Assembly (NCBI GenBank): GCA_041675645.1
Contig: JBAYTN010000001.1
Span: forward strand, 145,061 to 209,060
DNA: 64,000 bases
Direction: 5' to 3'
Source: Melioribacteraceae bacterium
GTDB taxonomy: Bacteria > Bacteroidota > Ignavibacteria > Ignavibacteriales > Melioribacteraceae
The notes below the pieces were generated by a model, which had not been told where the DNA came from, searched no databases, and saw only the letters and a program-made list of their open reading frames with translations. The stretch's first letter is position 1, and each line of letters begins with the position of its first letter. Shown piece by piece: positions 24,301-53,928 of the stretch. The position numbers and the translations under genes were made by a program.

Positions 24301-26316
24301 CAATGTTGGAAACGTTGCCACCGAAAATTTTGATGTTTTCGGATAAGTTTGATACATAGAGCTATCGCGCGTGATTACAAAATACTCTTCCGGATTTATT
24401 ACTATGGTTTTATCAACCACTTTATTTTTTGAAGATGAATTAGCTAATTGATAACCTCTCAGATTAATCTGCTTAGAACTCCTATTGTAAACTTCCACCC
24501 ATTCCGGCTCTGAAGAGTTCGGGCTATACATAATTTCATTTACAACTAAATCGCCGGGCAATTCATTTATCTGTACTGCATTGAATTTTAATACTGAAAT
24601 ATTGTTTTCAAGATATTCATCGTTTAATAAATCAACACGAACAATAAATTGATTTGAACCGGCAACGAAGCTTCCCACAGTGAAGTTTAAATTTACTATT
24701 GCCAGATTAGCAAAAACAGTTCCTTTTATTTCGTCTATCTTCTCATCATCATCGATAGTATTGTTAAGATTAATATCGCGGAACAGTTTAGCAGAATAAG
24801 CTGTTTCTGTACTCTTACCTAGATTTTCTATCGTTGCTGTTAATTGAATTGTCTTTCCAATTTCGGCGTACTTGGAGCTTGTTCCAAAACTTTTAACACT
24901 CAGATCATGACTCTTCTCCGAAACCGAATTTATTTTTGAAGGCGTAGCTTTGTACTTGCTTAAAGAGGTATTCCAGTTAGCAGCATCTATCGAAGAAGCA
25001 TTGAATGAAATTCTCTCCAAAGACTTCCCGCCGCTGTTTCCTCCCCATGTAGGCGCGTATTTTAAAGAATCAACCGTAGAGTTCACATTACTTTTAAGAA
25101 TTACATCATCACCCGTATTGCTAAAAGAAGGAAGCCCTTTTACAATTAAATTGAGCGAATGACTGTAATAGTTTGTAATAGTTGCGTCGCTGCTTATAAC
25201 AACATATTCGCTAGGCTGAAGTAGAAAATCGTTTGAGGTAATTACAGCAGTAGTGGAATTATCGGAAATTTTCCAGTTTTTTAGATTTACCGTATGATCT
25301 GTTCTATTAAAGAGTTCAATCCACTCCGGTTCATCGTTAGAGGGCGCGTACATAATTTCATTTATTACAACATCCGTATAAGAAGCCGGTTTTTCAGATA
25401 TAGTGGTTAAAACATAAGCTCTGTTATCGGAAAGCTTTTCGTCCGGAGTATAATTAACTTTTGCAATAATCAAATTCTGCCCTATCTGCTCAGCATAAAA
25501 TTTAGCATCTACAAAAATTGAATCGTTCGATGAGAGGTCTATATAACTCTGACTAAATATTCTTTCACTTATCTGCTCTACCGAATCGGCATTTTGATCA
25601 CGAAAGATTTCCACAGAATAGGCGGAAGCATCCAGGACGCCGTTATTCTTTACAATAAATTGCACATAAACCGAATCCCGCTCTACGGGATTTGCCGGTG
25701 TTAAAGAACTTAATCTGACTGTAAGGTTATGCAAGTAGCTTATAGGTGTTACGGAATTTATTTTTCCGGGAGAGCCGTTAGCAGTTGTTCCGTTACGCCA
25801 ATTTGCGGAACTGTTATCCTTACCGAGTAAGTATTTTTCATCGGAGATTCCGGAATTGTTATCTGCCGAATATGTATAAGTATCTATCACCTCGCTCGCA
25901 GCATTAAGCAAAGAAACGTCGCGGCTAGTGGTATTTGCCATACCGGAAGAACCAAAAGACGCATCTGTAATTTTTAATACTATTGCATCGGCGGGGATTA
26001 AATTTTTATATGCGCCGTTATTGTAATCATAATCACTTTCTATTATAACCGCATATTTGCCCGGTTGAAGATCCATTCCACCAATAAAAGCAACTAGATT
26101 ATCTGACGAGGAGGTGTAATACTTAATCTTGAACCCGGTAAGATTAACAGTTTCGGTAGTTGAGGTGTTATAAATTTCTATAAACTCGCCGTTGCTTTCG
26201 GATGGATTAAACATGATTTCAGAAAGCGTGAGAACCGATCCGGTTTGTCCGAATGCTTGTGGAGTGGCTAAAAACAGCAAGGTAATTGCTGCAAAGACAA
26301 ATATTATTTTTTTCAT
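18400..26316 (-). CDS. giant (2638 aa) secreted surface protein: 10 lamin-tail domains (LTD) interleaved with CARDB-like Ig domains, with a T9SS type-A C-terminal sorting domain
   Basis: Signal peptide MKKIIFVFAAITLLFLATPQAFGQ. Ten copies of the LTD signature N-E-[IV]-M-Y-x-P...EPEWIE[LI]YN. Repeated DV.IS.I.FTPS.PVVGQ.V.ISASATNIGKN modules (CARDB-like). The C-terminal ~85 aa (ISPNPFSPDNDGFEDFSIISFNL...IKVFDSQGRLVRTL...GIYILLIE) matches the T9SS type-A CTD. Confidence 0.8.
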   Translation of the reverse strand: MKKIIFVFAAITLLFLATPQAFGQTGSVLTLSEIMFNPSESNGEFIEIYNTSTTETVNLTGFKIKYYTSSSDNLVAFIGGMDLQPGKYAVIIESDYDYNNGAYKNLIPADAIVLKITDASFGSSGMANTTSRDVSLLNAASEVIDTYTYSADNNSGISDEKYLLGKDNSSANWRNGTTANGSPGKINSVTPISYLHNLTVRLSSLTPANPVERDSVYVQFIVKNNGVLDASAYSVEIFRDQNADSVEQISERIFSQSYIDLSSNDSIFVDAKFYAEQIGQNLIIAKVNYTPDEKLSDNRAYVLTTISEKPASYTDVVINEIMYAPSNDEPEWIELFNRTDHTVNLKNWKISDNSTTAVITSNDFLLQPSEYVVISSDATITNYYSHSLNLIVKGLPSFSNTGDDVILKSNVNSTVDSLKYAPTWGGNSGGKSLERISFNASSIDAANWNTSLSKYKATPSKINSVSEKSHDLSVKSFGTSSKYAEIGKTIQLTATIENLGKSTETAYSAKLFRDINLNNTIDDDEKIDEIKGTVFANLAIVNLNFTVGSFVAGSNQFIVRVDLLNDEYLENNISVLKFNAVQINELPGDLVVNEIMYSPNSSEPEWVEVYNRSSKQINLRGYQLANSSSKNKVVDKTIVINPEEYFVITRDSSMYQTYPKTSKFSVATFPTLLNTKDKVVILDSLNRTIDSLEYKNSWGGGVGKSLERVDWIRTSVDSSNWITSLNNLGGTPGIVNSSSQKNFDVAVSKIIYTPSSPLVGQRVTIAASASNIGKNDVSFKFVLNRVDSDGSKQKVEESNTITLIKGNSLTYNFTFAVEVLASKQTFEVIADLALDEDQANNSTTASVRPGYLAGTIKLNEVMYNPLNGEPEWIELYNASSFDVDLEDWSITDVLTTPQKRKILAKDIPFPSKTYLVIAKDSTIKDFHKSISGKFIVSSFPPLDNEADGIVIKDSRDVTIDSLLYDKTWGTDPGKSLERKVYESATNDKSNWDFSKDIELSTPGKNNSISPKDRDVAISNIVFTPSTPVVGQKVKISASATNIGKNGASFKFVLNRVNKDGSKQKVEESNILTSAVGASVSYEFVYAVDNITSKQTFEAIVDYSADEDLTNNTVTHFVRPGYPSGTVVLNEVMYAPMNGEPEWIELYNSSDYNIDLDDWSITDVLPSPYKVKIAAPNNLFASKTYLVIAKDSTIKSFHESIAGKFIVNPLPPLNNDSDGIVIKDSRDVIIDSLLYDKTWGADAGKSLERKVYESATNDKSNWDFSKDIELSTPGKNNSVSPKDRDVIISNIVFTPSAPVVGQRVKISASATNIGKNGASFKFVLNKIDKDGSKLKVEESNNLTIAVGTSVSYEFTHAVDNITSKQTFEAIADYSADEDLANNTVTNFVRPGYPSGTVVLNEVMYAPMNGEPEWIELYNASAYDVDLEEWSITDVLTSPLKTKIQAKDFSFPSKTYLVIVKDSTLLDFHKTINGKVIVSPFANLNNDTEGIVIKDSRDVMIDSLLFDKTWGGENGKSLERILFESTTNLKTNWGSSIDSEFSSPGRINSVSPKDHDIYLSSLSAVQKYAVVGRKIKMSIEIKNIGKNAASAFSVKLYRDANKNGIGETNELVYLKNETSLAINTASKYDVEDGSYVIGLNQYLATVEYPADQYLDNNMFPLTINAVVVNEERNDLVINEIMYAPLTGEPEWIEIYNNSLKQINLKGYQIANGSTKSKVIAQDVVLKPEEYFVVAKDSAVYTRFTNITKSVIASFPTLNNSKDRVVILDSLDRTIDSLEYKSGWGGTGGKSLERLDWVKLSTDSTNWKTSLHLLGATPGFINSISRKKFDVSVTKLLFTPAVPIVGQRVKISVAATNFGKTDASFKFVLNKVNKDGTKQKIEETNTMIISKDASLSYDFSYAIESILAKNTFEVVADFGSDEDFTNNAFSASVRPGYTAGTVYINEVMYNPINGEPEWLEIYNASANDVDLEDWSITDILTTPQKQIVKAKDSVFPKNTFLVIAKDSTIKNYHNAIPSKLIITSFANLNNDADGVVIKDSRDVTIDSVRFDSKWGGENGKSLERRMTSIASSEKNNWGSSKDLELSTPGRINSIAIKKYDLALKALVPKPLYPAFNEDINVGMRVINYGTFDADKFTVKYYVKNNNLYSYLGETNGVNLKSNDSVVVYSSTKIKLSEAKTVLCKVTFTNDEDTLNNSFIGDIIPGAKQNSVLITEVMYDPLTHEPEWVEFLNVSNEAINLKNWAVGDVLPSPTKALLTINDEFLQPGEYAIATPDTQAYAYNPPKKFYQAKFGSLGNTSDGIIIYDFRGAVIDSFFYKSSWGGGNGSSLERISFTKATNDSTNWIVSISNVGASPGVKNTSANPKAYKTGSLVLNELLYEPESGNAEFVEFYNTSNDSIQVGGLDLRVGTKDKVKLSASTFIIPPKEFLVLASDSSIYNKYPTLKRNITRVSSSLSLSNEGTPLLMKDLYGTTLDSVVYSPAWHNRNFLETKNKSLERLNPSLSSNDRANWSTSVTSEGATPGKQNSVYTENLATDARVSISPNPFSPDNDGFEDFSIISFNLPYKLSQVQIKVFDSQGRLVRTLLQNHPSAANNTVIFDGLDDDGRALRMGIYILLIEIAAEGSNNVETIKKPIVVARKL
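20450..24400. repeat. intragenic tandem repeats of ~800 bp (LTD + CARDB unit)
   Basis: The segment starting near 22241 and the one starting near 23041 (for example ggatgtaatgttatcaac...tttttccgggtgtgctaagttcaatatcttttgaaaagtcccaatttgatttatc) are about 90% identical at DNA level over roughly 750 bp. Flanking copies near 20640 and 23840 are about 70% identical. The period is about 800 bp. Confidence 0.8.
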
Positions 26317-37444: not shown

Positions 37445-39829
37445 ATGAAGCGATTCTTTTCTTCTCTGATTCTTCTTCTTACAATAATTACAACACAAAG
37501 CTTCTCGCAGGCTGATCCAGTTATTCAAAAAATAATTGAGATTGGTAAAACAGATAACCAAACAATGCGCCATTTGGACATTCTTTGTAACCGCATAGGC
37601 GGCAGACCAATCGGTTCCGATGCTTACACAAACGCCGCAAATTGGGTTCTTGGAGAATTTAAGAAATGGGGCATTAAAGCAGAGTTAGATGAATCGGGAG
37701 AACTTCCGGTTGGTTTTAACCGCGGAGCTTGGTTTGGCAAGATGATCAAGCCAAAAGAAATGCATTTGGAATTTGGTACCCCGGCATTTACAGCCGGAAC
37801 AAAAGGTGTTCAGCGCGGTCACGTAATTATTATGCCCAACACCTATGCAAAGTTTGATTCACTAAAAAATAAAATAAAAGGCGCTTGGATTTTAGTAGAC
37901 GGAATTAATGAAGGCTGGCCACGGGATCGTGACTCTGTTTCTTCTCTAACTACTAAGTTGATTGCTGCCGGCGCTCTTGGAACAATTCAGTTATCTAAAC
38001 TTCCTATTCGTCTTCTTGATGCGCGGTATGTTAAATCATGGAATAATTTGCCAATGCTTCCGGATATTAAATTGCTCGACACACAATTCAACGAAATAAA
38101 ATCATCCGTTGAAAAAGGTGAAGAAGTAATTCTCGAATTTGATATCCGGAATTTTTTCAAACAAGGTCCGATCAAATATCATAATGTAATTGGAATTATT
38201 CCCGGCACAGAATTTCCGAACGAGTATGTTGTTCTTGGTGCACATTTGGATTCATACGATTTTGCGACCGGTGCTGTTGATAACGGTTCCGGTGTAACGC
38301 CAATGATGGAAGCAATGAGAATGCTTGTTCTCTCCGGCGCAAAACCGAAACGTTCAATCATGATTCAAATTTATGCCGGTGAAGAAAGAGGTTTACTAGG
38401 TTCAAAATCTTGGGTAGCAAAAAACCAAAAACTGCTTCCTAAAATTTCTGTAATGCTGAATAAGGATTTTGGGACAAATCCTATAGTTGGAATTGGAGTT
38501 CCTAAAGTTATGATGGAACAAACGAAAACTGTTGTTGAGCCAATACTAAACGCCGGATTAAAATATCCATTCAAACTAAATGAAACCGGTCCATTTAGAA
38601 AAGCCGGACGCGGCGGAACCGATAGTCATTCATTTTTGATGGAAGGAGTTCCAACTCCTCGCTTAAATTCCGAAGGTCCGCATCAATATGGAAGAACATG
38701 GCATACGCTTTACGATACTTACAACGAAGTGATTCCCGATGCGCAAGAAGATGCGGCTGTAAAAATAGCTTTGCTTGCTTATGGCTTTGCTAATCTTGAT
38801 GAACTCCTTCCGCGAGAAGGCGCATTTGTTCCCGATGGAATTTATGCTGATATAAGCACCGCATCAAAAGGAAGAATTACGCTTGCGCTTGATTATGAAC
38901 ATGCACCTATGACTGTTGCCAACTTTATTGGTTTGGCTGAAGGAACAATAAAGAATGAAGCAATCGTTGAAGGAAAACCATATTACTCTAATGTTGTTTG
39001 GCATCGGGTTGTAGATGGGCACGTAATACAAGCCGGAATGCCGAATACCGGAAAAGAAACCGAAGGCCCCGGATATGAATTTCCAAATGAAATTTATAAC
39101 GGCTTCTCACATAATAAAGCCGGTATGCTTGGTATGGCGAACTCTGGTCCTAATACCAACGGAAGTCAATTCTACATTACACTTGCCGACCGTTCCTATT
39201 TGGATGGCAACTACACTTTATTCGGTTGGGTAACAGAAGGAATGGATGTAGTAAATAAGATTGCTCAAGGAGATACAATTAAAAGCATTACAATTACGCG
39301 CATCGGTGAAAAAGCAAATGCATTTAAAGTAACAAACGATTCATTTACTAAAATGGTTGACGAAGCTAAAGCCAAAGTTAAACTTGCTGATGAACAAAGA
39401 GTTAAAACCGAAGCTCAACTGGTTGCGAATAATTACTCGAATGCCGTAACAACCGCGAGCGGTTTGAAATATATAATAAAAAAAGAAGGCTCCGGAGAAA
39501 AACCCGCTGCTGGATCAATAGTAAAAGCGAAATACACCGGTAAGCTATTAATCAACGGAACCGAGTTTGTAAGTACTAGTGTAGAAGGAAAGGCTAACAC
39601 AATTGAGACGCCGGAAATTTTTGATTACGAAGTTGGTAAAACGAAAATTAACCACGGTGTTGATGAAGCATTAGCAGATATGAAACCGGGCGAAGTTCGT
39701 TTAGTAGTTGTGCCCTCCAATCTGGCATTTGGAACAAGCGGATTTTACGGCAAATCAATTTCGGGCAAAAAACGTTTTGTGATTTCTCCAAACACTAGTT
39801 TGGTTTATGAAATTGAAGTATTGCAATAA
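37445..39829 (+). CDS. secreted tri-domain protein: M28 family peptidase (PA domain) + cyclophilin-type PPIase + FKBP-type PPIase
   Basis: Signal peptide MKRFFSSLILLLTIITTQSFSQA. M28 zinc-ligand regions (HLDSYDFATGAVDNGSG, AGEERGLLGS). Cyclophilin core (VVWHRVVDGHVIQAGMP...GPNTNGSQFYITLAD...GWVTEGMDVV). C-terminal FKBP domain (GLKYIIKKEGSGEKPAAGSIVKAKYTGKLLINGTEF...RLVVVPSNLAFG). Confidence 0.75.
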   Translation: MKRFFSSLILLLTIITTQSFSQADPVIQKIIEIGKTDNQTMRHLDILCNRIGGRPIGSDAYTNAANWVLGEFKKWGIKAELDESGELPVGFNRGAWFGKMIKPKEMHLEFGTPAFTAGTKGVQRGHVIIMPNTYAKFDSLKNKIKGAWILVDGINEGWPRDRDSVSSLTTKLIAAGALGTIQLSKLPIRLLDARYVKSWNNLPMLPDIKLLDTQFNEIKSSVEKGEEVILEFDIRNFFKQGPIKYHNVIGIIPGTEFPNEYVVLGAHLDSYDFATGAVDNGSGVTPMMEAMRMLVLSGAKPKRSIMIQIYAGEERGLLGSKSWVAKNQKLLPKISVMLNKDFGTNPIVGIGVPKVMMEQTKTVVEPILNAGLKYPFKLNETGPFRKAGRGGTDSHSFLMEGVPTPRLNSEGPHQYGRTWHTLYDTYNEVIPDAQEDAAVKIALLAYGFANLDELLPREGAFVPDGIYADISTASKGRITLALDYEHAPMTVANFIGLAEGTIKNEAIVEGKPYYSNVVWHRVVDGHVIQAGMPNTGKETEGPGYEFPNEIYNGFSHNKAGMLGMANSGPNTNGSQFYITLADRSYLDGNYTLFGWVTEGMDVVNKIAQGDTIKSITITRIGEKANAFKVTNDSFTKMVDEAKAKVKLADEQRVKTEAQLVANNYSNAVTTASGLKYIIKKEGSGEKPAAGSIVKAKYTGKLLINGTEFVSTSVEGKANTIETPEIFDYEVGKTKINHGVDEALADMKPGEVRLVVVPSNLAFGTSGFYGKSISGKKRFVISPNTSLVYEIEVLQ

Positions 39830-45146: not shown

Positions 45147-46252
45147 GAGTACTTTTCACTTGTCTTTCCCAAAGTTGGGGCGGAATGGAAATGTACGCTC
45201 TAACTACGGTTAAGCAGCTTCTCAAACATAATATTGAAACCGAATTAGTTTGCTTTCCAGATTCGCGGCTTCACGAAGAAGCGGCTAAAGAAAATATTAC
45301 TATACATACTTTTAGATTTAAGTCGTATATCAATCTCTCCGCCACAAGCAAGCTTTCCTCATTGATAAAGAAGAACTCCTACGATGTAATTGAGTGCGGC
45401 GGATCGAAAGATTTATGGCTTGTTGTTCCGGTATTAAAACTTTCGGGATCAACAATTCCCTTGTTTCTTTCTAAGCAGATGGCTTCCTTTATAGTAAAAA
45501 AAGATTTTATGCATCGCTGGATTTACAGCCGAGTTTCAAAAGCATTTGCAATCAGCAACATGATTGCCAAGAACCTTGAAGAGACAACGCCGCTAACGAA
45601 AGATAAAATTGTACTTCTGCACAACGCGATTGATACAACCAAGTTTGATCCGGCAAAGATTGACAGAACAAAAGTCCGAAAGGAATTTTCAATTGCTGAT
45701 GACCAAATACTAATCGGGATGATTGCAAGATTTAGTCCCGGAAAAGGGCACGAGGAATTTCTTACAGCAGTTAATCAACTTAGCGATAGCCATTCAAACG
45801 TAAGATTTATGATTGTAGGTGAAGCAAGCCGGGGCGAAGAAAGCTACGCGCAGAAAATAAAATCGCTTGCGGGCGAACTTAACATTTTAGATAAAATAAT
45901 TTTTACCGGTTTCCGTAAAGACACACCGGAAATTTTAGCGGCACTGGATATTTTTATTTTTCCATCTCACGATGAAGCTTTTGGAATTGCGCTAGCTGAA
46001 GCTCTAAGTATGGGAAAGCCTTCTGTTTGTTCTAATTTTGCCGGAGTTCTTGATATTGCCGTTGATAATGAAACATCTTACTTGTTCGAAAAAGGAAACG
46101 GAATCGATCTAGCTACAAAAACTGAGTTGCTGGTTAATTCGAAGGAAACTCGTGAGCGTTTCAGTAATGCGGCGCGCAAAAGAGCTGTTGAGATGTTCGA
46201 TATAGAATTATTCACCGAAAAGTTAATTAATCACTTTAAGCTAAGCAGATGA
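45143..46252 (+). CDS. glycosyltransferase family 4 (GT-B fold)
   Basis: 369 aa. The C-terminal half has the GT4 EX7E region (SHDEAFGIALAEALSMGKPSVCSN). It overlaps the upstream gene by 4 nt. Confidence 0.75.
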   Translation: MRVLFTCLSQSWGGMEMYALTTVKQLLKHNIETELVCFPDSRLHEEAAKENITIHTFRFKSYINLSATSKLSSLIKKNSYDVIECGGSKDLWLVVPVLKLSGSTIPLFLSKQMASFIVKKDFMHRWIYSRVSKAFAISNMIAKNLEETTPLTKDKIVLLHNAIDTTKFDPAKIDRTKVRKEFSIADDQILIGMIARFSPGKGHEEFLTAVNQLSDSHSNVRFMIVGEASRGEESYAQKIKSLAGELNILDKIIFTGFRKDTPEILAALDIFIFPSHDEAFGIALAEALSMGKPSVCSNFAGVLDIAVDNETSYLFEKGNGIDLATKTELLVNSKETRERFSNAARKRAVEMFDIELFTEKLINHFKLSR

Positions 46253-48342
46253 CCTTTCTTAATCCCGCGGTATTATTTGGCTTGTTCGCTGCTGCGATTC
46301 CAATTGTTCTGCACTTTTTAAACTTACGTAAGCTGAAAACTATTGAGTTCAGCACGCTCGCTTTCTTAAAGGAATTGCAGAAAACAAAGATCCGCAGAAT
46401 TAAGCTGAAGCAATGGCTGCTTTTGCTTATTCGTGTTTTGATTATTCTGTTTCTAGTACTTGCGTTTGCCAGACCAACATTAAAAAGTATTACTTTGGGT
46501 GAATCTTCCGCAGCAAAAACAACCGCGGTTATTATACTCGATAACACTTTCAGCATGTCTGTTGTTGGAGAAAAAGGTTCACGGCTCAATAACTACAAAC
46601 AAATTGCCAAGAACTTGCTTAACAATTTTCAGCCGGGTGATGAAATTGCGCTGATATCGGTTGGTGATCTTACCGGACAGAATCAATTAGTTTCCGGCAA
46701 TCTGGCCGAAATCAAAAAAAGAATTGATGATTTAGAAATCTCGAACATAAGCGGCACACTTAATCAAGCAATGATTCGTGCAGCTCAAATTCTTTATCAA
46801 TCAAAAAACTTTAACAAAGAAATTTATTTGCTCACAGATCTGCAGAAAGATAGAATCGCAAACTCACCATTGGAAATTTCGAACTTTGCAAAAACTATTT
46901 CGACGGAAACCCGTTTATATCTTTTTAACAACAACCAAAACGAAGTTGTGAATCTTGGCATTGCTGACTTGAAGCCCAACAACCAGCTTTATGAGCTTGG
47001 CAAAGAAGTAAGCTTTTCCGCACAAATTAAAAATTATTCAAATTCATCGGTTAACGATAACGTTGTTTCATTCTTTATCAATGGAAAACGTAACGTGCAG
47101 AAAAGCCTTTCTATGACAGCCAACGAAACCAAAGAAATATCTTTTGAAACAACTTTGCAAGACACCGGACTGGTTGAATTTACAGCAGAGCTTGAAGATG
47201 ATGCAATACTTCAAGACAACAGAAGATTTTTTAGCGTTTACATTCCGAGCAGTATTTCGCTTCTCTTGTTATACGATCGTGCAGATGATGCAAAGTTTGT
47301 TAAGCTTGCGCTTGGAATACCTAATCCGAAGATTAAACTGACGGAGTTAAGAACCGAGCAAGCAGCTTCAGTGAATCCGCAAAAGTTTGACTGTGTTATT
47401 GTAATTGGAAGTGAAGGATTGCTTAATTCCAAAGCACTTGCTTCTTTCGTAGAGAATGGCGGCGGGTTAATTGTTTTACCCGGGACACAAAGCACACTAG
47501 CTGGTTTTCAAAAATTCAATAAAGCGTTAGGAATACCATTTCCTACTTCTTTGATCGGAAAGCCCGGTTCACCTGATTCATTTACTCAATTCTCGAAAAC
47601 AGATTTTCAGCATCCGCTTCTTAAAAACATATTCGAACAAAAAACAAAAACACAGATTGAATCGCCCGAAATATTTTGCTATTTCAAAACACTTACTGCG
47701 GCTAACGGAAAAAACATAATATCGCTTGTTGATAATTCTTCATTTTTAGCAGAATACAAATTTGGAAGAGGCCGGGTTCTTTCTTTTTCTTCTGCGCCGG
47801 TTTTAAGCTGGAATACTTTTCCCCTAAAAGCTTTCTTCGCCCCATTGATGAATAAGGCGTTGCTATATTGTTCCGTAAAATCAAATCAAGATTCTACTCT
47901 AATATGTGGAAACGAAGCGGTAACAGATGTTTCAAGCGCTGCGTCCAAGCAAATCAAAATTTTATCGCCGGATAATACCGAAACATATTACGATGCGGAT
48001 TCACTCGTTAACAAAAAGTATCTTACTTATCCTAACACTTCAAAGGCCGGGACTTATAAAGTATATTCAGGCAATAATTTCATCAATTACTTTTCTGTTA
48101 ATCATGATTCACGCGAATCGGTTTTGGAAAGTGAACCGGAAAATGAATTTGAAAACTACTTAAAACAAACCGGCTATGAAGGAAAGTATATTTCTCTTTC
48201 AGCCGATGCCGATTACCTTAAGGAAATTTATCAATCACGATTTGGTACAGAGCTTTGGAAATACTTTTTAATCATCGTATTGATGCTAGCCATTGCCGAA
48301 TCACTTTTATCAAGAAGTACTAAGAAAGACTTAACCACATGA
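46249..48342 (+). CDS. BatA-like N-terminal double-TM domain + VWA domain protein
   Basis: The N-terminus MTFLNPAVLFGLFAAAIPIVLHFLNLRKLKTIEFSTLAFL matches the aerotolerance BatA N-terminal domain. A VWA MIDAS-like segment AVIILDNTFSMS follows. There is a C-terminal TM helix. Confidence 0.55.
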   Translation: MTFLNPAVLFGLFAAAIPIVLHFLNLRKLKTIEFSTLAFLKELQKTKIRRIKLKQWLLLLIRVLIILFLVLAFARPTLKSITLGESSAAKTTAVIILDNTFSMSVVGEKGSRLNNYKQIAKNLLNNFQPGDEIALISVGDLTGQNQLVSGNLAEIKKRIDDLEISNISGTLNQAMIRAAQILYQSKNFNKEIYLLTDLQKDRIANSPLEISNFAKTISTETRLYLFNNNQNEVVNLGIADLKPNNQLYELGKEVSFSAQIKNYSNSSVNDNVVSFFINGKRNVQKSLSMTANETKEISFETTLQDTGLVEFTAELEDDAILQDNRRFFSVYIPSSISLLLLYDRADDAKFVKLALGIPNPKIKLTELRTEQAASVNPQKFDCVIVIGSEGLLNSKALASFVENGGGLIVLPGTQSTLAGFQKFNKALGIPFPTSLIGKPGSPDSFTQFSKTDFQHPLLKNIFEQKTKTQIESPEIFCYFKTLTAANGKNIISLVDNSSFLAEYKFGRGRVLSFSSAPVLSWNTFPLKAFFAPLMNKALLYCSVKSNQDSTLICGNEAVTDVSSAASKQIKILSPDNTETYYDADSLVNKKYLTYPNTSKAGTYKVYSGNNFINYFSVNHDSRESVLESEPENEFENYLKQTGYEGKYISLSADADYLKEIYQSRFGTELWKYFLIIVLMLAIAESLLSRSTKKDLTT

Positions 48343-49607
48343 TAACACTGGCCCCAACGCCAAAAGAAAGAGCAATATTAATAGCATTAGCCTTTGGTGA
48401 GTATACCAAAGAGCAAGTTGAAGAGCATTTAGATGAGCTAGAACTGCTGACCGATACAGCCGGTGCAGATACAGTTTTCAAGGTTATGCAAGAACGTTAC
48501 CGCCCGGATCCGGCTTATTATATTGGAAAAGGAAAAGCTGAAGAGATTGCTCAGTTAATTGAATTGAATGAAATTCAGCTTGTAATCTTCGATGACGATT
48601 TGAACCCAACTCAAGTCCGTAACCTTGAGAGACTTTTCGAGCGGAAAATCTTAGATAGAAGCGGGCTGATTTTAGACATTTTTGCTTCGCATGCAAAAAC
48701 AAGAGAAGCAAAAACACAAGTGGAACTTGCTCAGCTACAATATATGCTTCCTCGCTTAACACGCGCATGGACTCACCTTTCCAAACAGTATGGCGGTATT
48801 GGAACAAAAGGTCCGGGTGAAACACAGATTGAAACTGACCGTAGAGCAATTAGAACAAGAATTAGCAAGCTGAAAGAAAATTTAAAGAAGATAGAATCTC
48901 AGCAAACGACAAAGAGCGCCGGAAGAAAAGATTTTCTTACAGCAACTTTGGTCGGTTACACAAATGCTGGAAAATCTACTCTGCTTAACCGCTTAACTAA
49001 TTCGGATGTTCTTGCGGAAAATAAACTTTTTGCAACGCTTGATTCTACCACCCGTTCATTTGAGCTTGCAAAGGGAAAGACAATTTTACTTAGCGATACA
49101 GTTGGTTTCATTCGTAAACTTCCGCACAATCTTGTAGCTTCATTTAAAACAACACTTAATGTTGTCCGTGATGCCGATATTATAATTCATGTTATTGATA
49201 TTACACACGATTTTTTTGAAGATCACATTCGCGTAGTTGAAGAAACATTGACGGAGCTTGATGCGAAAAAGAAGATCAACATTATGGTGTTTAATAAAGT
49301 AGATGCTATTAAAGATAGAAACCGGCTTGATCTTGTAATGAGCAATCATCCCGACTGCATAATGGTTTCTGCCGAGCGAGGAATCAACATAAATAATTTA
49401 AAGAGAATGCTAGTTGAGATTTACGAAAAACACTTCGTTGAAGAGTCAATCGAAATCCCCAACAGTGAATCCAGAATAATTGCCAAGCTGTATGAGCTTG
49501 CAGATGTAACATTCATAAAATATTTAGATGATAGGGCCCAGATAAAATACCGGGCAAATTCTTCCAATCAACAAAAAATCAAGAGATTGATAAATGAAGC
49601 CAGCTAA
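48339..49607 (+). CDS. hflX: GTPase HflX
   Basis: HflX N-terminal domain followed by a GTPase domain with G1 GYTNAGKSTLLNRLT and G3 DTVGF. Confidence 0.85.
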   Translation: MITLAPTPKERAILIALAFGEYTKEQVEEHLDELELLTDTAGADTVFKVMQERYRPDPAYYIGKGKAEEIAQLIELNEIQLVIFDDDLNPTQVRNLERLFERKILDRSGLILDIFASHAKTREAKTQVELAQLQYMLPRLTRAWTHLSKQYGGIGTKGPGETQIETDRRAIRTRISKLKENLKKIESQQTTKSAGRKDFLTATLVGYTNAGKSTLLNRLTNSDVLAENKLFATLDSTTRSFELAKGKTILLSDTVGFIRKLPHNLVASFKTTLNVVRDADIIIHVIDITHDFFEDHIRVVEETLTELDAKKKINIMVFNKVDAIKDRNRLDLVMSNHPDCIMVSAERGININNLKRMLVEIYEKHFVEESIEIPNSESRIIAKLYELADVTFIKYLDDRAQIKYRANSSNQQKIKRLINEAS

Positions 49608-51159
49608 ACTAATTATCGACGGAAAATCGCTAACACTTGATAAAATAAATTTCTTCCTTCACGAAAATCCAATTGTTGAGTTATCCGCTCAATCGAAAAA
49701 GAAAGTTAACGCCGCGCGGAGGCTTGTTGACGAATGGGTAGAAAAAGGTGAAACTATTTACGGCGTTACAACAGGCTTTGGCGGATTTTCAAGTGTAAGA
49801 ATTCCAAAAGAAGATATTGCACGACTTCAAGAAAATTTAATTATCAGCCACACCGCCGGAGTTGGAGAAAACCTTCCTCCATTTATTGTCAAATTGATGA
49901 TGCTTCTCCGCGCGAATGCTCTAGCAAGCGGTTTCTCCGGAATTAGATTAGAAACACTCCAGCTTCTGTTGGACATGATGAACAATAACATAATCCCGGT
50001 TATTCCTTCGCAAGGATCTGTTGGTGCCAGTGGCGACTTAGCTCCTTTAGCTCATTTAGTTTTAGCGATGATTGGCAAAGGTGAAGTGCAAATCATAAAA
50101 AACGTTTTAGATGAAAAAGCTTCCGAAGCCAAAGTTCACTCTTCAGTCAAAATATTAAAAAAATTCGGACTCTCGCCCGTTAAGCTTGCGGCGAAAGAAG
50201 GATTAGCTTTGATTAACGGCACGCAAATGATGACAGCCTTCGGAGCGTTCATTTGCATCGAAGCCAAGAAGCTTATGAAACTAGCAGATATTTCCAGTGC
50301 TCTTTCTCATGAGGCTCTTCGGGCAACAGACAGAGCATTTGATTTGCGTGTTCATAACTTGCGTCCTTATCCCGGACAAATTGCAACTGCAAAAAATTTA
50401 TTAGCTTTATTGAATAAGAGTGAAATCCGCGCTTCACATCTGCAAGACGATCCGCGCGTACAAGATTCCTACTCCATTCGCTGTATTCCACAAGTTCACG
50501 GCGCTTCTCGCGATGCAATAGATTATGTCTGCTCACGAATTGAAATTGAATTAAATTCGGTAAATGATAACCCAATAATTTTCCCGGATGATAAAGATTA
50601 TATCAGCGGCGGGAATTTTCATGGTCAGCCTCTCGCTCTTCCGTTAGACTTTATGGCTATCGCACTTGCCGAATTAGCCGACATTTCAGAGAGAAGAATA
50701 GATCGTTTGACAAACGGGACTTCGGAAAAACTTCCTAAGTTTCTTGCTAAAGATGGAGGTTTAAATTCCGGTTACATGATTGCACAATACACCGCGGCAG
50801 CACTTGTATCGGAAAATAAAGTATTGGCTCATCCCGCAAGTGTAGATTCGATTCCTACATCTGCCGGAAAAGAGGATTTAAATTCTATGGGATCAATCTC
50901 TGCAAGAAAATGTCATCAAGTTTTAAAGAATGTCCAAACGGTTATTGCGATTGAATTATTGTTAGCCGCGCAAGGTATAGACTTCTTGAAACCGCTTAAA
51001 TGTGGAATCGGAACAAATGCCGCATATAAAACCATTCGAAAATTAATCCCGACTTTGAATCAAGATAGAATTCTTTATGAGGACACGAAAAAAATTCTGA
51101 GTTTAGTTGCGGAAGGAAAAATTCTGAACGAAGTTGAGAAAGCGGTTATGTTGTTATAG
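49594..51159 (+). CDS. hutH: histidine ammonia-lyase (MIO-dependent aromatic amino acid lyase family)
   Basis: 521 aa. YGVTTGFGGFS and the MIO-forming GSVGASGDLAPLAHL (Ala-Ser-Gly triad) are present. The overall length is typical of HAL. Confidence 0.75.
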   Translation: MKPAKLIIDGKSLTLDKINFFLHENPIVELSAQSKKKVNAARRLVDEWVEKGETIYGVTTGFGGFSSVRIPKEDIARLQENLIISHTAGVGENLPPFIVKLMMLLRANALASGFSGIRLETLQLLLDMMNNNIIPVIPSQGSVGASGDLAPLAHLVLAMIGKGEVQIIKNVLDEKASEAKVHSSVKILKKFGLSPVKLAAKEGLALINGTQMMTAFGAFICIEAKKLMKLADISSALSHEALRATDRAFDLRVHNLRPYPGQIATAKNLLALLNKSEIRASHLQDDPRVQDSYSIRCIPQVHGASRDAIDYVCSRIEIELNSVNDNPIIFPDDKDYISGGNFHGQPLALPLDFMAIALAELADISERRIDRLTNGTSEKLPKFLAKDGGLNSGYMIAQYTAAALVSENKVLAHPASVDSIPTSAGKEDLNSMGSISARKCHQVLKNVQTVIAIELLLAAQGIDFLKPLKCGIGTNAAYKTIRKLIPTLNQDRILYEDTKKILSLVAEGKILNEVEKAVMLL

Positions 51160-51167
51160 ACATTAAA

Positions 51168-51214
51168 GTGAAATGTGAAAGTTAATTTCTTTCACAGTTC
51201 ACTTTTTTCTTTTT
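51168..51214 (+). terminator. rho-independent terminator after hutH
   Basis: Hairpin gtgaaatgtgaaag...ctttcacagttcac followed by ttttttcttttt. Confidence 0.65.
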
Positions 51215-51356
51215 CCGATTTGTATATGCTTTCTTTACCAAGCCTTTCTCTGCGGTCAATCCATTTATCTAATTTGGATATAGCAAGGCCGAATAATGTA
51301 ATCCCTAGTAAAATAAGAATTGTTACAAGTATAAAAACGATTGTGTAAATACTCAT
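51192..51356 (-). CDS. 54-aa single-pass membrane peptide with 4-nt start/stop overlap to the transposase gene
   Basis: Not in the ORF track (shorter than 60 aa). MSIYTIVFILVTILILLGITLFGLAISKLDKWIDRRERLGKESIYKSEKEKSEL has one hydrophobic helix and a charged tail. Its ATG overlaps the tnpA TGA as ATGA. Its stop lies inside the hutH terminator hairpin. Confidence 0.35.
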   Translation of the reverse strand: MSIYTIVFILVTILILLGITLFGLAISKLDKWIDRRERLGKESIYKSEKEKSEL

Positions 51357-51790
51357 CTTAAATCCAAACCATATTTTTTAATAAAACTATCATATTCCTC
51401 GCTAAAGCTTTTCTGCATATGATGATTTTTCTGATTATCAATATAATTAATTACGTTATTTAAGATGGATTCGCTGACAGAAAACGCCGCATATCCCGTT
51501 TGCCATGCAAACTTCTCGTTCAAAAATTCATTTTGATTAATCCAGTGAGATGATTCTCCCTTTAAGTAATGAAAAACATCTTTGACTGAGTGAATTTGAT
51601 TTAGCAAAAACAATACATGAACATGGTCTTTATAACCGCCAATTGATTTTAGCGTAATATCAAATCTTTCTTTTAGAATTTCATCCATGTGCTGATATAA
51701 TACTTTTTCAAACTTTTCCGTAATCAGCGCTTCTCTATTTTTTGTGCTGAATATTCCGTGGATCCAAATTTTAGTTACGGAATGAGACAT
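51353..51790 (-). mobile_element. tnpA: IS200/IS605-family Y1 (HuH) transposase TnpA gene, no tnpB; possibly RAYT-like
   Basis: 145 aa with the HuH motif DHVHVLF and a catalytic Tyr region (WQTGYAAFSVS). The size and N-terminus (IWIHGIFSTKNR) are typical of IS200 TnpA and REP-associated tyrosine transposases. Confidence 0.75.
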
Positions 51791-51799
51791 ACATCCTCC

Positions 51800-51903
51800 A
51801 AACGGTTAAAACCGTTTAAAATATAATGAGTTTAACTTTCAGCCCATAGATTAATCTATGGGCTGAGATATATCGTTAAAAAGGAAGAACCGTTTCAACG
51901 GTT
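51800..51903. repeat. three hairpins upstream of tnpA (possible IS200 end or REP-like elements)
   Basis: aaacggtt-aa-aaccgttt (51800-51817). cagcccatagatt-a-aatctatgggctg (51840-51865, 13-bp arms). aaccgtt-tc-aacggtt (51888-51903), an inverted version of the first hairpin. Confidence 0.55.
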
Positions 51904-51962
51904 TGTATTTCACTTCCCATTTCTTAAGTTGCTATTGGACTTAGCCAAAAAGGAGATAAGTT

Positions 51963-53486
51963 ATGTCGATTGTTCTTGATGGTTCCAATCTCACAGTAGA
52001 AAAAGTAGTTGCAATAGCCCGCCACAATGAAAAAGTTGAATTACACCCCGAAGCTCTTGAAAGGATTAAAATTTGTCGTGCAATGCTTGAACAGAAAATC
52101 CAAGCGCACGAAATTATGTATGGTGTTAACACCGGTATAGGTGAATTTAGCGAAGTTGTTTTAAATGATGAGCAAGTAAAAGAATTTCAGAAGTACTTGA
52201 TTTACAACCATGCTGCCGGTATTGGTGATCCAGCGCCGATTGAATACGTCCGCGGGGCTATTACCGGAAGGATTAATGTTCACGCACATGGAATGTCCGG
52301 CATCCGTCCGGAAATAACCCTAACCCTTATTGAAATGCTTAACAAAGGTGTAACTCCAGTTGTCTGCCAGAAAGGCTCTGTTGGCGCAAGCGGCGATTTA
52401 GCACCAATGAGTCAAATTGCTTTGCTGCTAATGGGAGAAGGGGAAGCATTCTATAACGATGAGCGATTGCCGGGAAGAGTTGCTTTTGAAAAAGCCGGAA
52501 TTGAAATTCCCGGACTTCAAGCGCGAGACGGGCTCGGGACAATTAACGGTTCTAATTTGTTAACAGCAATGAGCGCAATTCATCTTTATGATATTAACCG
52601 TTGGTTAAAACAAGCTGAGATTGCTTGCGCAATGTCGCTTGAAGCTTTGTTTGCAAATCTAAAACCATACGATACTCGCCTTCATGAAGTACGTGGTTTT
52701 AAAGGTTCTGTGCGAAGCGCCCGCTCAATATTAAAATGTATCGAAGGAAGCGATTTACAAACCGGAAAACTGAAATCGAAAGTGCAAGATGCTTACTCAA
52801 TGCGTTCTTCTCCTCAAGTGATTGGTGCGGCTCACGATGCAATTGCATACGCAAAGCAGCAAGTTGAAATTGAATTGAATGGCGTTGGCGATAATCCAAT
52901 TTTTATTCCAGAAAGTAATATCACTTTAACGGGCGCAAATTTTCAAGGAACGCCGGTTTCACTTCCCATGGACATGGTTAGCGCCGCGGTAACAATGGTT
53001 TCTGTTCTTTCCGAAAGACGATTGAACCGTTTACTTAATCCCGCTCTTAGTATCGGTCTTCCGGATTTTCTTACTAAAGGCGCCGGAATGTTTTCCGGGT
53101 TGATGCTTAGTCAGTACACCGCCGATACATTAATAGTTGAGCAGAGAATGCTTTCGGCACCGGCTTCCGTTCAATCCATTCCGGCAGCGGCAGATCAAGA
53201 AGATTTTGTTTCTATGGGAATGAATACCGCAATTAAGAATGCGCAGATTATAGATAATGCATATGGAGTTCTTGGTATTGAATTCATTGCGGCATCTCAA
53301 GCATTAGATTTTAGAAACTTCACAAATGGGAAGGGAGTTTCTAAAGCAAAAGAGATCGTACGCAAACATGTTGCTCATCTTGATGTTGACAGACCTCTTT
53401 ATCCCGACCATACAAAAATGAAAGAAGTTGTAAAGAGTTGTGAAATATTAGATGAAGTTGAAAGGGTAGTTGGTACTTTAGAATAA
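51963..53486 (+). CDS. second MIO-dependent ammonia-lyase/aminomutase family paralogue (HAL-like)
   Basis: 507 aa with YGVNTGIGEFS and GSVGASGDLAPMSQI (ASG triad). By eye it is only about 35% identical to the upstream hutH product. Confidence 0.7.
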   Translation: MSIVLDGSNLTVEKVVAIARHNEKVELHPEALERIKICRAMLEQKIQAHEIMYGVNTGIGEFSEVVLNDEQVKEFQKYLIYNHAAGIGDPAPIEYVRGAITGRINVHAHGMSGIRPEITLTLIEMLNKGVTPVVCQKGSVGASGDLAPMSQIALLLMGEGEAFYNDERLPGRVAFEKAGIEIPGLQARDGLGTINGSNLLTAMSAIHLYDINRWLKQAEIACAMSLEALFANLKPYDTRLHEVRGFKGSVRSARSILKCIEGSDLQTGKLKSKVQDAYSMRSSPQVIGAAHDAIAYAKQQVEIELNGVGDNPIFIPESNITLTGANFQGTPVSLPMDMVSAAVTMVSVLSERRLNRLLNPALSIGLPDFLTKGAGMFSGLMLSQYTADTLIVEQRMLSAPASVQSIPAAADQEDFVSMGMNTAIKNAQIIDNAYGVLGIEFIAASQALDFRNFTNGKGVSKAKEIVRKHVAHLDVDRPLYPDHTKMKEVVKSCEILDEVERVVGTLE

Positions 53487-53510: not shown

Positions 53511-53879
53511 ATGAAGAAGTATTTTTCCACAATTATTTTTTCCGTCCTATTATTTTCAAGCAGCCAAATACTCTTTGCTCAGCTAAGAGTACAAACCGGA
53601 GTGTTTAATGCAGATAAAAATGTTTCCAACTACATGCTTGCGGCCGGCGGTGATATGGAAAGAACATTACAACTAAGTATATCTTTTCCAAAACCGTTTA
53701 CTAAAACTCCCGACATTCAATTAAGCATAACCAGATTAGATCAAGATCGCGGGAACAATACTCGTTACGATGTGAAAGTAGTTTCGGCGCATAAAGCCGG
53801 CTTTACGCTCGAAATCAAAACTTGGGGTGGTTCAAAAATTTATTTGATTGGCGGAACATATATGGCTGTTGGAGAATAG
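53511..53879 (+). CDS. small secreted H-type lectin domain protein
   Basis: 122 aa with signal peptide. The mature part (QTGVFNADKN...LQLSISFPKPFTKTPDIQLSITRLD...RYDVKVVSAHKAGFTLEIKTWGGSKIYLIGGTYMAVGE) matches the H-type lectin domain pattern (Helix pomatia agglutinin / discoidin type). Confidence 0.5.
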   Translation: MKKYFSTIIFSVLLFSSSQILFAQLRVQTGVFNADKNVSNYMLAAGGDMERTLQLSISFPKPFTKTPDIQLSITRLDQDRGNNTRYDVKVVSAHKAGFTLEIKTWGGSKIYLIGGTYMAVGE

Positions 53880-53894
53880 TATAAATTAATTCAT

Positions 53895-53922
53895 GCACCC
53901 GATTTGTACTTGGGTCGGGTGC
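53895..53922. terminator. bidirectional terminator hairpin
   Basis: gcacccga-tttgtacttggg-tcgggtgc, between convergent genes ending at 53879 (+) and 53929 (-). Confidence 0.5.
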
Positions 53923-53928
53923 GCTTCT

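Follow-up and report, generated by a model that had tools for sequence, protein, structure and literature searches.

The gene hutH of a Melioribacteraceae bacterium, coding for histidine ammonia-lyase (HAL), is followed on the same strand by a second gene whose product, by its position in a phylogeny and its family-model scores, is a member of a distinct subfamily within the HAL clade that has no characterised member. Both enzymes are of the type that carries a 4-methylideneimidazole-5-one (MIO) group, a small and heavily studied class with uses in biocatalysis and enzyme therapy. The genes lie in a 64,000-nt stretch of assembly GCA_041675645.1 (contig JBAYTN010000001.1, forward strand, 145,061-209,060), here called the window, to which all coordinates refer. 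Throughout, the upstream lyase gene is HAL1 and the downstream one HAL2, and L and P numbers denote loci and proteins of relatives. We hold, with moderate confidence, that the likeliest reaction of HAL2 is that of L-histidine to urocanate. The main products of the analysis are the HAL2 clade and its signature, a natural alternation of Cys and Ser at the MIO-forming position, and a pattern at the hflX locus in which relatives keep one lyase, the other or both. The two lyase genes are as follows.

49594-51159, plus strand: HAL1, canonical hutH, 521 aa; ASG triad at aa 145-147 (nt 50026-50034), SH at aa 85-86
51963-53486, plus strand: HAL2, 507 aa; ASG triad at aa 142-144 (nt 52386-52394; Ser codon AGC at 52389-52391), NH at aa 82-83

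The initial annotation, read from the letters of the window, had placed two same-strand MIO-type lyase genes at these coordinates, each with an ASG triad, and the list of open reading frames (ORFs) and Pfam agree: both products are full-length PF00221 Lyase_aromatic proteins (E = 2e-191 for HAL1 and 4e-160 for HAL2), and in both the triad stands within GSVGASGDLAP. The identity, put at about 35% by eye, is 37% over 517 columns by BLASTP.

HAL2 belongs to a distinct clade of the histidine ammonia-lyase branch

In an unrooted neighbour-joining tree of 151 sequences (100 bootstrap replicates; no tyrosine ammonia-lyase (TAL), phenylalanine ammonia-lyase (PAL) or aminomutase outgroup), the HAL2 family and five distant representatives (P0121, P0122, P0124, P0126 and P0142) form a clade in 98 of 100 replicates. 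HAL1 groups with its own orthologues in all 100 and joins the HAL2 clade in 4, and the three solved HALs, from Pseudomonas putida, Thermoplasma acidophilum and Trypanosoma cruzi, fall outside that clade. As judged from this tree, HAL1 and HAL2 both belong to the histidine ammonia-lyase branch and separated from each other long ago.

The two genes had been described as paralogues in tandem. That hutH was recently duplicated in tandem with no divergence in function, the copies being split later by an insertion sequence (IS), would fit two adjacent lyases that lie on the same strand and both carry the HAL catalytic residues, but we consider it extremely improbable. At 37% identity, HAL1 and HAL2 occupy separate, well-supported clades in which each is nearer to proteins of other organisms than to its neighbour, and a recent local duplication is thereby excluded. 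Moreover, HAL2 orthologues occur in many phyla without an adjacent hutH, and in many Ignavibacteria HAL2 alone follows hflX. The initial annotation had also allowed that both lyases might fall in the canonical HAL clade; HAL2, however, lies outside the hutH equivalog, and NH replaces SH in its active site.

The subfamily is widespread. A scan with one genome per GTDB species found a HAL2 relative encoded in at least 594 genomes, and the best 80 of these carry orthologues that are 76-90% identical, the 76% floor arising from the retention of the best 80 only. Going by the labels of metagenome-assembled genomes (MAGs), from which the phylum names are taken, these 80 include Ignavibacteria, Chloroflexota, Acidobacteriota, WOR-3, Zixibacteria, TA06, Eisenbacteria and one Thermoplasmatales MAG. 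Among the representatives of a library clustered at 50% identity, the full-length ones closest to HAL2 are 58%, 54% and 47% identical, and a continuum of 36-44% follows. The plasmid collection yielded no HAL2-clade member, all matches there being less than 44% identical and canonical hutH. NCBI names the relatives of HAL2 'aromatic amino acid ammonia-lyase' or 'HAL/PAL/TAL family ammonia-lyase', and the existence of a separate clade accounts for the former label being used instead of HutH.

HAL2 is also the most conserved protein of its locus, with 81-90% identity across relatives as against 60-74% for HflX, 68-82% for HAL1 and 76-85% for SerC, and its conservation across phyla is about that of urocanase. 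A clade so strongly constrained, and present in at least 594 species genomes, is a target for tests of substrate range and cofactor biogenesis.

Active site and likely substrate of HAL2

The hidden Markov models on which HAL2 scores best are HAL models, and it exceeds the threshold of the looser subfamily model PRK09367 (531.7 against 524). When HAL2 is aligned to P. putida HAL and invariance is assessed over 74 HAL2 orthologues, Tyr53, His83, Asn195, Gln275, Tyr278, Arg281, Phe327, Met381 and Glu413 of HAL2 prove invariant. The catalytic and positioning set is thus kept (in P. putida numbering, Tyr53, Asn195, Gln277, Tyr280, Arg283 and Phe329), as is the imidazole-specific pair His83 and Glu414, the latter being Glu413 in HAL2. 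In the HAL of Geobacillus kaustophilus, mutation of the equivalent Tyr, His, Asn and Glu residues eliminated activity, and mutation of the equivalent Gln, Arg and Phe residues lowered it (PMC11432326). Superposition of P. putida HAL and the AlphaFold model of HAL2 (pLDDT 86) gives a template-modelling score (TM) of 0.90-0.91.

Gene neighbourhoods of the orthologues point in the same direction. At L071 the order is hutH, HAL2, M48 peptidase, hutU, Ank protein, hutI and FTCD, with hutI well above its cut-off (TIGR01224, 454 against 298); at L080 HAL2 abuts hutU, and at L066 and L051 hutU lies about 6-7 kb from HAL2. The histidyl-tRNA synthetase gene hisS is beside or near HAL2 at L025, L026, L038, L063 and L078, which carry the labels of at least three phyla. 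This context of hutU, hutI, FTCD and hisS constitutes annotation evidence for histidine as the likely substrate, and because the HAL residues are intact and such genes neighbour the orthologues, histidine is the likeliest substrate of HAL2. The enzyme would then convert L-histidine to urocanate and ammonia by means of an autocatalytically formed MIO group.

Several observations weigh against this assignment. HAL2 scores below the cut-off of the hutH equivalog model TIGR01225 (506.5 against 539.15), as do other members of its clade (500.0 for L080 and 476.5 for P0121; clade range 476-506), in contrast to the characterised T. acidophilum HAL, which reaches 757 bits on the same model. The SH motif, which is credited with histidine recognition (PMC11432326) and is present in HAL1, the three solved HALs and 120 of about 126 other representatives, reads NH in 74 of 74 HAL2 orthologues. 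The clade, including its members at 47-58% identity, carries substitutions beside catalytic residues that are absent from every characterised HAL (TGFG to TG(I/V)G, NGTQ to NGSN, RC to RS, GGNFH to GANFQ and QEDH to QED(F/Y)), and at 90 positions the HAL2 family is fixed for a residue other than that of the HAL1 family. For the majority of the 80 HAL2 loci, neither hut nor his genes are among the neighbours, and in the window and the 10 kb past either end (84 kb, the area scanned for hut genes and for element copies) none of hutU, hutI, hutG, FTCD and hisS was found, the hut genes and FTCD being those whose lack counts here. Furthermore, many Melioribacteraceae keep hutH and HAL2 adjacent, as does the unrelated L071, and such long-term retention side by side argues against full redundancy. 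The tree, finally, is unrooted, and a search for an enzyme assay of any HAL2-clade member found none.

Candidate hut genes were rejected in two places. The gene of the arginase family that lies immediately beyond the end of the window proved to be rocF (314 against a cut-off of 227.6) instead of hutG (116 against 229), and of the L002 genes (562, 416 and 576 aa) that lie between hflX and HAL2 and were considered as hutU or hutI, one resembles OmpA and the rest are without a match in Pfam. Our search of the open literature found nothing on HAL or urocanate in Ignavibacteria.

The departures from canonical HutH could also mean that HAL2 has been neofunctionalised for another, probably imidazole-bearing amino acid, for example a methylated or thiolated histidine, with a product that may feed into the hut pathway; such feeding would explain why the gene is retained beside hutH. 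Besides the sub-threshold hutH score, the invariant NH in place of SH and the clade-wide substitutions next to catalytic residues, this explanation can draw on the co-retention of hutH and HAL2 in tandem in at least two lineages and on the unusually strong purifying selection on HAL2. Nevertheless, we regard it as rather unlikely: the imidazole-binding pair His83/Glu413 is intact, as is every other HAL residue defined by mutation, reciprocal loss of the two genes at one syntenic locus suggests that either suffices, the adjacency of hisS points to histidine itself, and no natural MIO enzyme has been established for substrates besides His, Phe and Tyr (PMC11432326).

The initial annotation had proposed that the second enzyme has a different substrate or is an aminomutase. 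The retention of all HAL catalytic and imidazole-binding residues speaks against the first suggestion, and a score about 150 bits under the aminomutase cut-off against the second. The proposed inspection of the selectivity residues and the inner-loop Tyr gave a divided answer, in that the HAL residues including Tyr53 are kept but NH stands in for SH, which leaves room for some divergence. Considering the NH motif and the sub-cut-off hutH score together, HAL2 may have diverged to some extent in function, and the broader suggestion that it is not just another hutH survives, though weakened.

That HAL2 is a MIO-dependent 2,3-aminomutase is, in our estimate, very improbable. The difference between the substrate loops, YGVTTGFGGFS in HAL1 and YGVNTGIGEFS in HAL2, had been offered as a clue to substrate, and when Tyr53 of HAL2 is equated with Tyr63 of the Streptomyces globisporus tyrosine aminomutase (TAM), position 71 of that enzyme corresponds to the Glu of TGIGEFS, and we take Glu to be typical there; we found no paper in the open literature that names Glu71 for TAM. 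The same Glu, however, occurs in about 17 ordinary HAL-like representatives with SH and in the L001 hutH orthologue, so it is not diagnostic, and we rejected it both as an aminomutase signature and as a substrate clue. The fold of HAL2 is equally close to TAM (TM 0.90), but a fold search with the HAL2 model gave TM values of 0.87-0.92 alike for HAL, TAM and ergothionase, and these are hence not separable by fold. HAL2 falls short of the cut-off of every aminomutase model: it reaches 351.8 on the tyrosine 2,3-mutase model TIGR03832 (cut-off 501), and 333.8 and 175.5 on the phenylalanine mutase models TIGR04475 and TIGR04473 (800 and 1250). The same applies to the PAL/TAL models TIGR01226 (221 against 519), NF053541 (327.6 against 700) and NF041222 (193.8 against 1000). 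Moreover, the selectivity pair is NH, neither FL nor HL, no natural-product cluster lies nearby, and the hutU neighbours of some orthologues imply urocanate as the product.

Cysteine and serine alternate at the MIO-forming triad

The MIO precursor triad would be Ala-Ser-Gly in HAL2 of the window and Ala-Cys-Gly in most of its orthologues. The window triad, with its AGC codon and GSVGASGDLAP context, conforms to that of HALs, and within the HAL2 family ACG is found in 42 of 74 orthologues and ASG in the remaining 32. Among the closest database proteins with a readable triad (n = 119), 80 have ACG and 39 ASG. Switches between Ser and Cys separate family members that are at least 89% identical. 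At the middle residue, Cys is encoded by TGC or TGT and Ser by AGC or AGT and by TCC or TCG, both Ser families being one base away from Cys. ACG also occurs in six HAL-like representatives with SH. The S143C mutant of P. putida HAL reportedly matures to the same cofactor and is fully active; our search of the open literature found nothing on Ala-Cys-Gly in connection with MIO, on natural ACG triads or on S143C.

These data could be taken to mean that the HAL2 clade is a widespread MIO family with a signature of its own (TGIG, NH, NGSN, RS, GANFQ and QEDF), a MIO formed in nature no less often from Ala-Cys-Gly than from Ala-Ser-Gly, and a substrate or role other than that of a histidase. We consider this proposition as a whole unlikely. 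If it were true, formation of the Cys-derived MIO would entail loss of H2S instead of water, and the differing role would explain both the retention of HAL2 beside hutH and its higher conservation.

HAL1 and the history of the hflX locus

HAL1 scores well above the hutH equivalog cut-off (652.8 against 539.15 bits). Its relatives, which are 69-90% identical and named 'histidine ammonia-lyase' by NCBI, come from Melioribacteraceae, Ignavibacterium and Rosettibacter (including the cultured Rosettibacter firmus), and its best match in the Protein Data Bank is T. cruzi HAL, 6v6h. On this evidence HAL1 is an ordinary Ignavibacteria hutH. Two genes precede it with overlapping ends.

46249-48342, plus strand: batA-like gene; overlaps hflX by 4 nt
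48339-49607, plus strand: hflX, GTPase (Pfam GTP-bdg_N/M and MMR_HSR1); overlaps hutH by 14 nt

From the 4-nt and 14-nt overlaps, batA, hflX and hutH probably form an operon, in which hutH would be translationally coupled to hflX. The tight junction of hflX and hutH recurs in L132 and L001; where hutH follows hflX, the junction is either a 14-nt overlap or an 11-nt gap, as against a gap of 86-161 nt where HAL2 does.

Relatives fall into three groups at this locus. Both lyases are present in the window, L001, L003, L135, L136/137, L138 and L139; HAL2 alone in L005, L006, L007, L011, L016, L018, L019, L021 and L023; and hutH alone in Ignavibacterium sp. (L132/133) and Rosettibacter firmus (L134). 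In L132 hutH is followed by a 100-aa gene, whose orthologue, at 66% identity, separates hflX from HAL2 in L011 and L016. This synteny suggests hflX-hutH-(100-aa gene)-HAL2 as the probable ancestral order in Ignavibacteria, from which some lineages later lost one lyase and others the other, both being kept in Melioribacteraceae. Such reciprocal loss suggests that the functions of hutH and HAL2 overlap.

In Melioribacteraceae, a gene for a small secreted H-type lectin is retained near hutH and HAL2, but not at a fixed position. It follows HAL2 in the window, L001, L002, L135, L138 and L139, and stands upstream of hutH, after hflX, in L003 (5846-6247) and L136 (5546-5947).

A truncated IS200-type element between the two lyases

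The lyase genes had been described as 800 bp apart with an IS200-type tnpA between them. The spacer is in fact 803 bp and contains such a gene; tnpA and a small ORF within the spacer run opposite to the lyases, and the G+C content falls to about 31% over the tnpA region. A secreted H-type lectin gene had likewise been noted 24 nt after the HAL2 stop, and Pfam confirms it. The features from the end of hutH onwards are these.

51165-51205, both strands: bidirectional terminator-like hairpin, 17-nt arms, 94% complementary; the terminator scan matches 51174-51196 on both strands
51192-51356, minus strand: 54-aa single-pass membrane ORF; its 3' side shares the hairpin with the hutH end, and its ATG overlaps the tnpA stop (ATGA)
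51353-51790, minus strand: tnpA, 145 aa, IS200/IS605-family Y1 transposase (Pfam Y1_Tnp, 2.7e-23, and NF033573)
51791-51916, minus strand: left end of the tnpA element, three hairpins (DNA fold z = -6.5; boundary from the empty site in L138)
51801-51816: hairpin A, adjoining the tnpA ribosome-binding site (RBS) GGAGGA
51839-51866: hairpin B, a perfect 28-nt palindrome
51888-51903: hairpin A', left-end copy, terminator-like on the minus strand
51917-51962, plus strand: native HAL2 upstream region, with the motif TTCTTAAGTTGC at 51921-51932 and the RBS AAGGAG at 51950-51955
53511-53879, plus strand: small secreted H-type lectin gene, 122 aa (Pfam H_lectin, 6e-18)
53894-53923, plus strand: terminator-like hairpin closing the HAL2-lectin unit, 13-bp stem with 6 GC pairs

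No Rfam family reached its gathering score in the window, and the hairpin region gave chance-level matches only.

According to the initial annotation, tnpA and the small ORF had both been inserted. For tnpA this is borne out by L138, whose HAL2 is 98% identical and where the site is empty, the small ORF and HAL2 being 114 bp apart with no tnpA in the spacer; homology of the window to L138 resumes at 51917 and is 98.8% identical onward. L139 (95%) retains a decayed remnant in which the first tnpA codons and hairpins are left. As a side observation, at 3520-4000 of L139 hairpin B carries in its loop about 125 bp of inserted DNA, which contains the further hairpins GCAAGCTTCAGCTTGC and GCAACTTGAAAGTTGC, and A' is also disrupted. 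The small ORF, by contrast, has homologues at the same site in L001, L002 and L023 (56-62% identical) and also in L135, L138 and L139, none of these loci having an intact tnpA. Because it is kept upstream of HAL2 in relatives without tnpA, where it is divergent from HAL2, the small ORF is a resident gene and was rejected as a component of the IS.

The transposase itself looks sound over most of its length: it scores above the NF033573 IS200 equivalog cut-off (62.3 against 55), and its HUH motif (HVH) and Tyr (YIDNQ) are intact. Its homologues are 36-58% identical, the closest found, at 58%, being in metagenomes, and those on plasmids are annotated by NCBI as IS200/IS605 family transposases. 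The homologous genes at loci L086-L099 are flanked by hairpins in the order B-A-tnpA-A'-B', where type A is AACCGnTTnAAnCGGTT, adjoining the RBS, and type B is CCCAnnnn-loop-nnnnTGGG. In these homologues the stop codon lies within A', which also encodes a conserved C-terminal Asn-Arg (...NR*). In the window, A', B and A all stand upstream of tnpA (51791-51916), no A' or B' follows downstream, and the protein ends early with GLDLR*, its TGA stop overlapping the ATG of the small ORF. Across loci every aligned position of the hairpin B stems pairs, five pairs with compensatory changes, although selection by palindrome search makes this pairing partly a matter of construction. A tandem array at L092, with five B and four A hairpins within about 900 bp, bears a likeness to systems of repetitive extragenic palindromes (REP) and REP-associated tyrosine transposases (RAYT).

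No further copy of the element or its hairpins was found in the 84 kb, the exact TnpA protein was found at this locus only, and the window copy lies inside an unbroken 203.7-kb short-read contig. As far as its ends and termination can be read from the DNA, the window tnpA is a one-ended, 3'-truncated, dead IS200-type copy. In this strain lineage it would have landed in the divergent spacer of about 114 bp that parted HAL2 from the small ORF.

Transcription units and the effect of the insertion

The initial annotation had suggested that the insertion may uncouple expression of the downstream lyase. The terminator-like hairpin at 51165-51205 and the opposite-strand gene, however, part hutH from HAL2 in tnpA-free strains as well, so the two lyases were already separate units and the insertion did not uncouple an operon. 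From its conserved upstream sequence and the terminator after the lectin gene, HAL2 is predicted to have an upstream region of its own and to form a unit with the lectin gene, which is probably co-transcribed with it. The motif TTCTTAAGTT(T)G is conserved about 30-45 nt upstream of the HAL2 start in L001, L002, L003 and L138; in L001 and L002 it reads TAAGTTTG, which we take to fit the Bacteroidota-type -7 promoter element TAnnTTTG.

The insertion might still alter the expression of HAL2, by replacing a distal promoter, or of the small ORF, by fusing it to the tnpA reading unit. Between the end of the element and the TTCTTAAGTTGC motif lie about 5 nt, and 46 nt separate that end from the HAL2 ATG; about 65-85 nt of native spacer have been removed, including the upstream region of the small ORF, and the tnpA stop overlaps the small-ORF ATG. 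Such an effect is conceivable but doubtful, given that the conserved proximal motif and the HAL2 RBS are intact, that promoter rules of Ignavibacteria are not established, and that HAL2 is still strongly constrained in this lineage, with 98% identity to the tnpA-free strain.

Two other genes in the window may be recorded here. An ORF of 2638 aa (18400-26316, minus strand) contains about ten lamin-tail domains together with CARDB and, at its C terminus, an FlgD_ig-like domain, and is probably a giant surface protein, and one of 794 aa (37445-39829, plus strand) combines an M28 peptidase with a cyclophilin-type and an FKBP-type peptidyl-prolyl isomerase.

Comparison with known systems

Apart from the HAL2 clade, the locus, with its hutH, second HAL-like gene and dead transposase, is ordinary. 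Like IS200 (the tnpA-only members of IS200/IS605) and RAYTs, the window tnpA encodes a Y1 HUH transposase of about 145-150 aa, lacks long terminal inverted repeats and has a structured 5' end with a terminator-like hairpin and a hairpin at the RBS. Among the hallmarks of IS200/IS605, presence/absence polymorphism of the site is found (L138 and L139), and two structured ends and, within the 84 kb, multiple copies are not. The inverted flanking hairpins of the tnpA homologues and their extra tandem copies at some loci resemble REP clusters, but the window copy, single, without a 3' end and without dispersed hairpins in 84 kb, is unlike an active IS or a REP-spreading RAYT.

Ergothionase of Treponema denticola (6S7J) has the same fold, the top TM to the HAL2 model (0.92) and an imidazole substrate, at 28% identity. 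Ergothionase is not known to use MIO; HAL2, in contrast, keeps the triad and the GSVGAxGDLAP motif invariantly.

A precedent for a functionally unclear HAL-like gene beside a true one is provided by hutH1 and hutH2 of Pseudomonas fluorescens SBW25, of which hutH2 alone is the histidase on which growth with histidine depends, hutH1 being dispensable (PMC8034625); the comparison with HAL2 is one of gene arrangement. Unlike in that pair, HAL2 is the more conserved gene and is sometimes the sole HAL-like gene at the locus.

Measured against the characterised HALs, HAL1 agrees with them in every feature tested. With HutH (EC 4.3.1.3; P. putida 1B8F/1GKM, T. acidophilum 7TQR, T. cruzi 6V6H and G. 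kaustophilus HAL), HAL2 shares the Pfam domain, the fold (TM about 0.9) and the triad, and with the solved HALs it shares Tyr53, His83, Asn195, the Gln, Tyr, Arg and Phe residues, Glu414 and Met382. It is, however, only 33-36% identical to the latter and differs from them in NH, TGIG, NGSN, RS, GANFQ and QEDF, and most triads of its clade have Cys. For this last feature the S143C mutant of P. putida HAL, in which a mid-triad Cys is reportedly converted to the active cofactor, offers a possible mechanism by which the natural ACG orthologues could mature. That enzyme is an engineered mutant, whereas in the HAL2 family Cys is the majority natural state and alternates with Ser by single-base changes.

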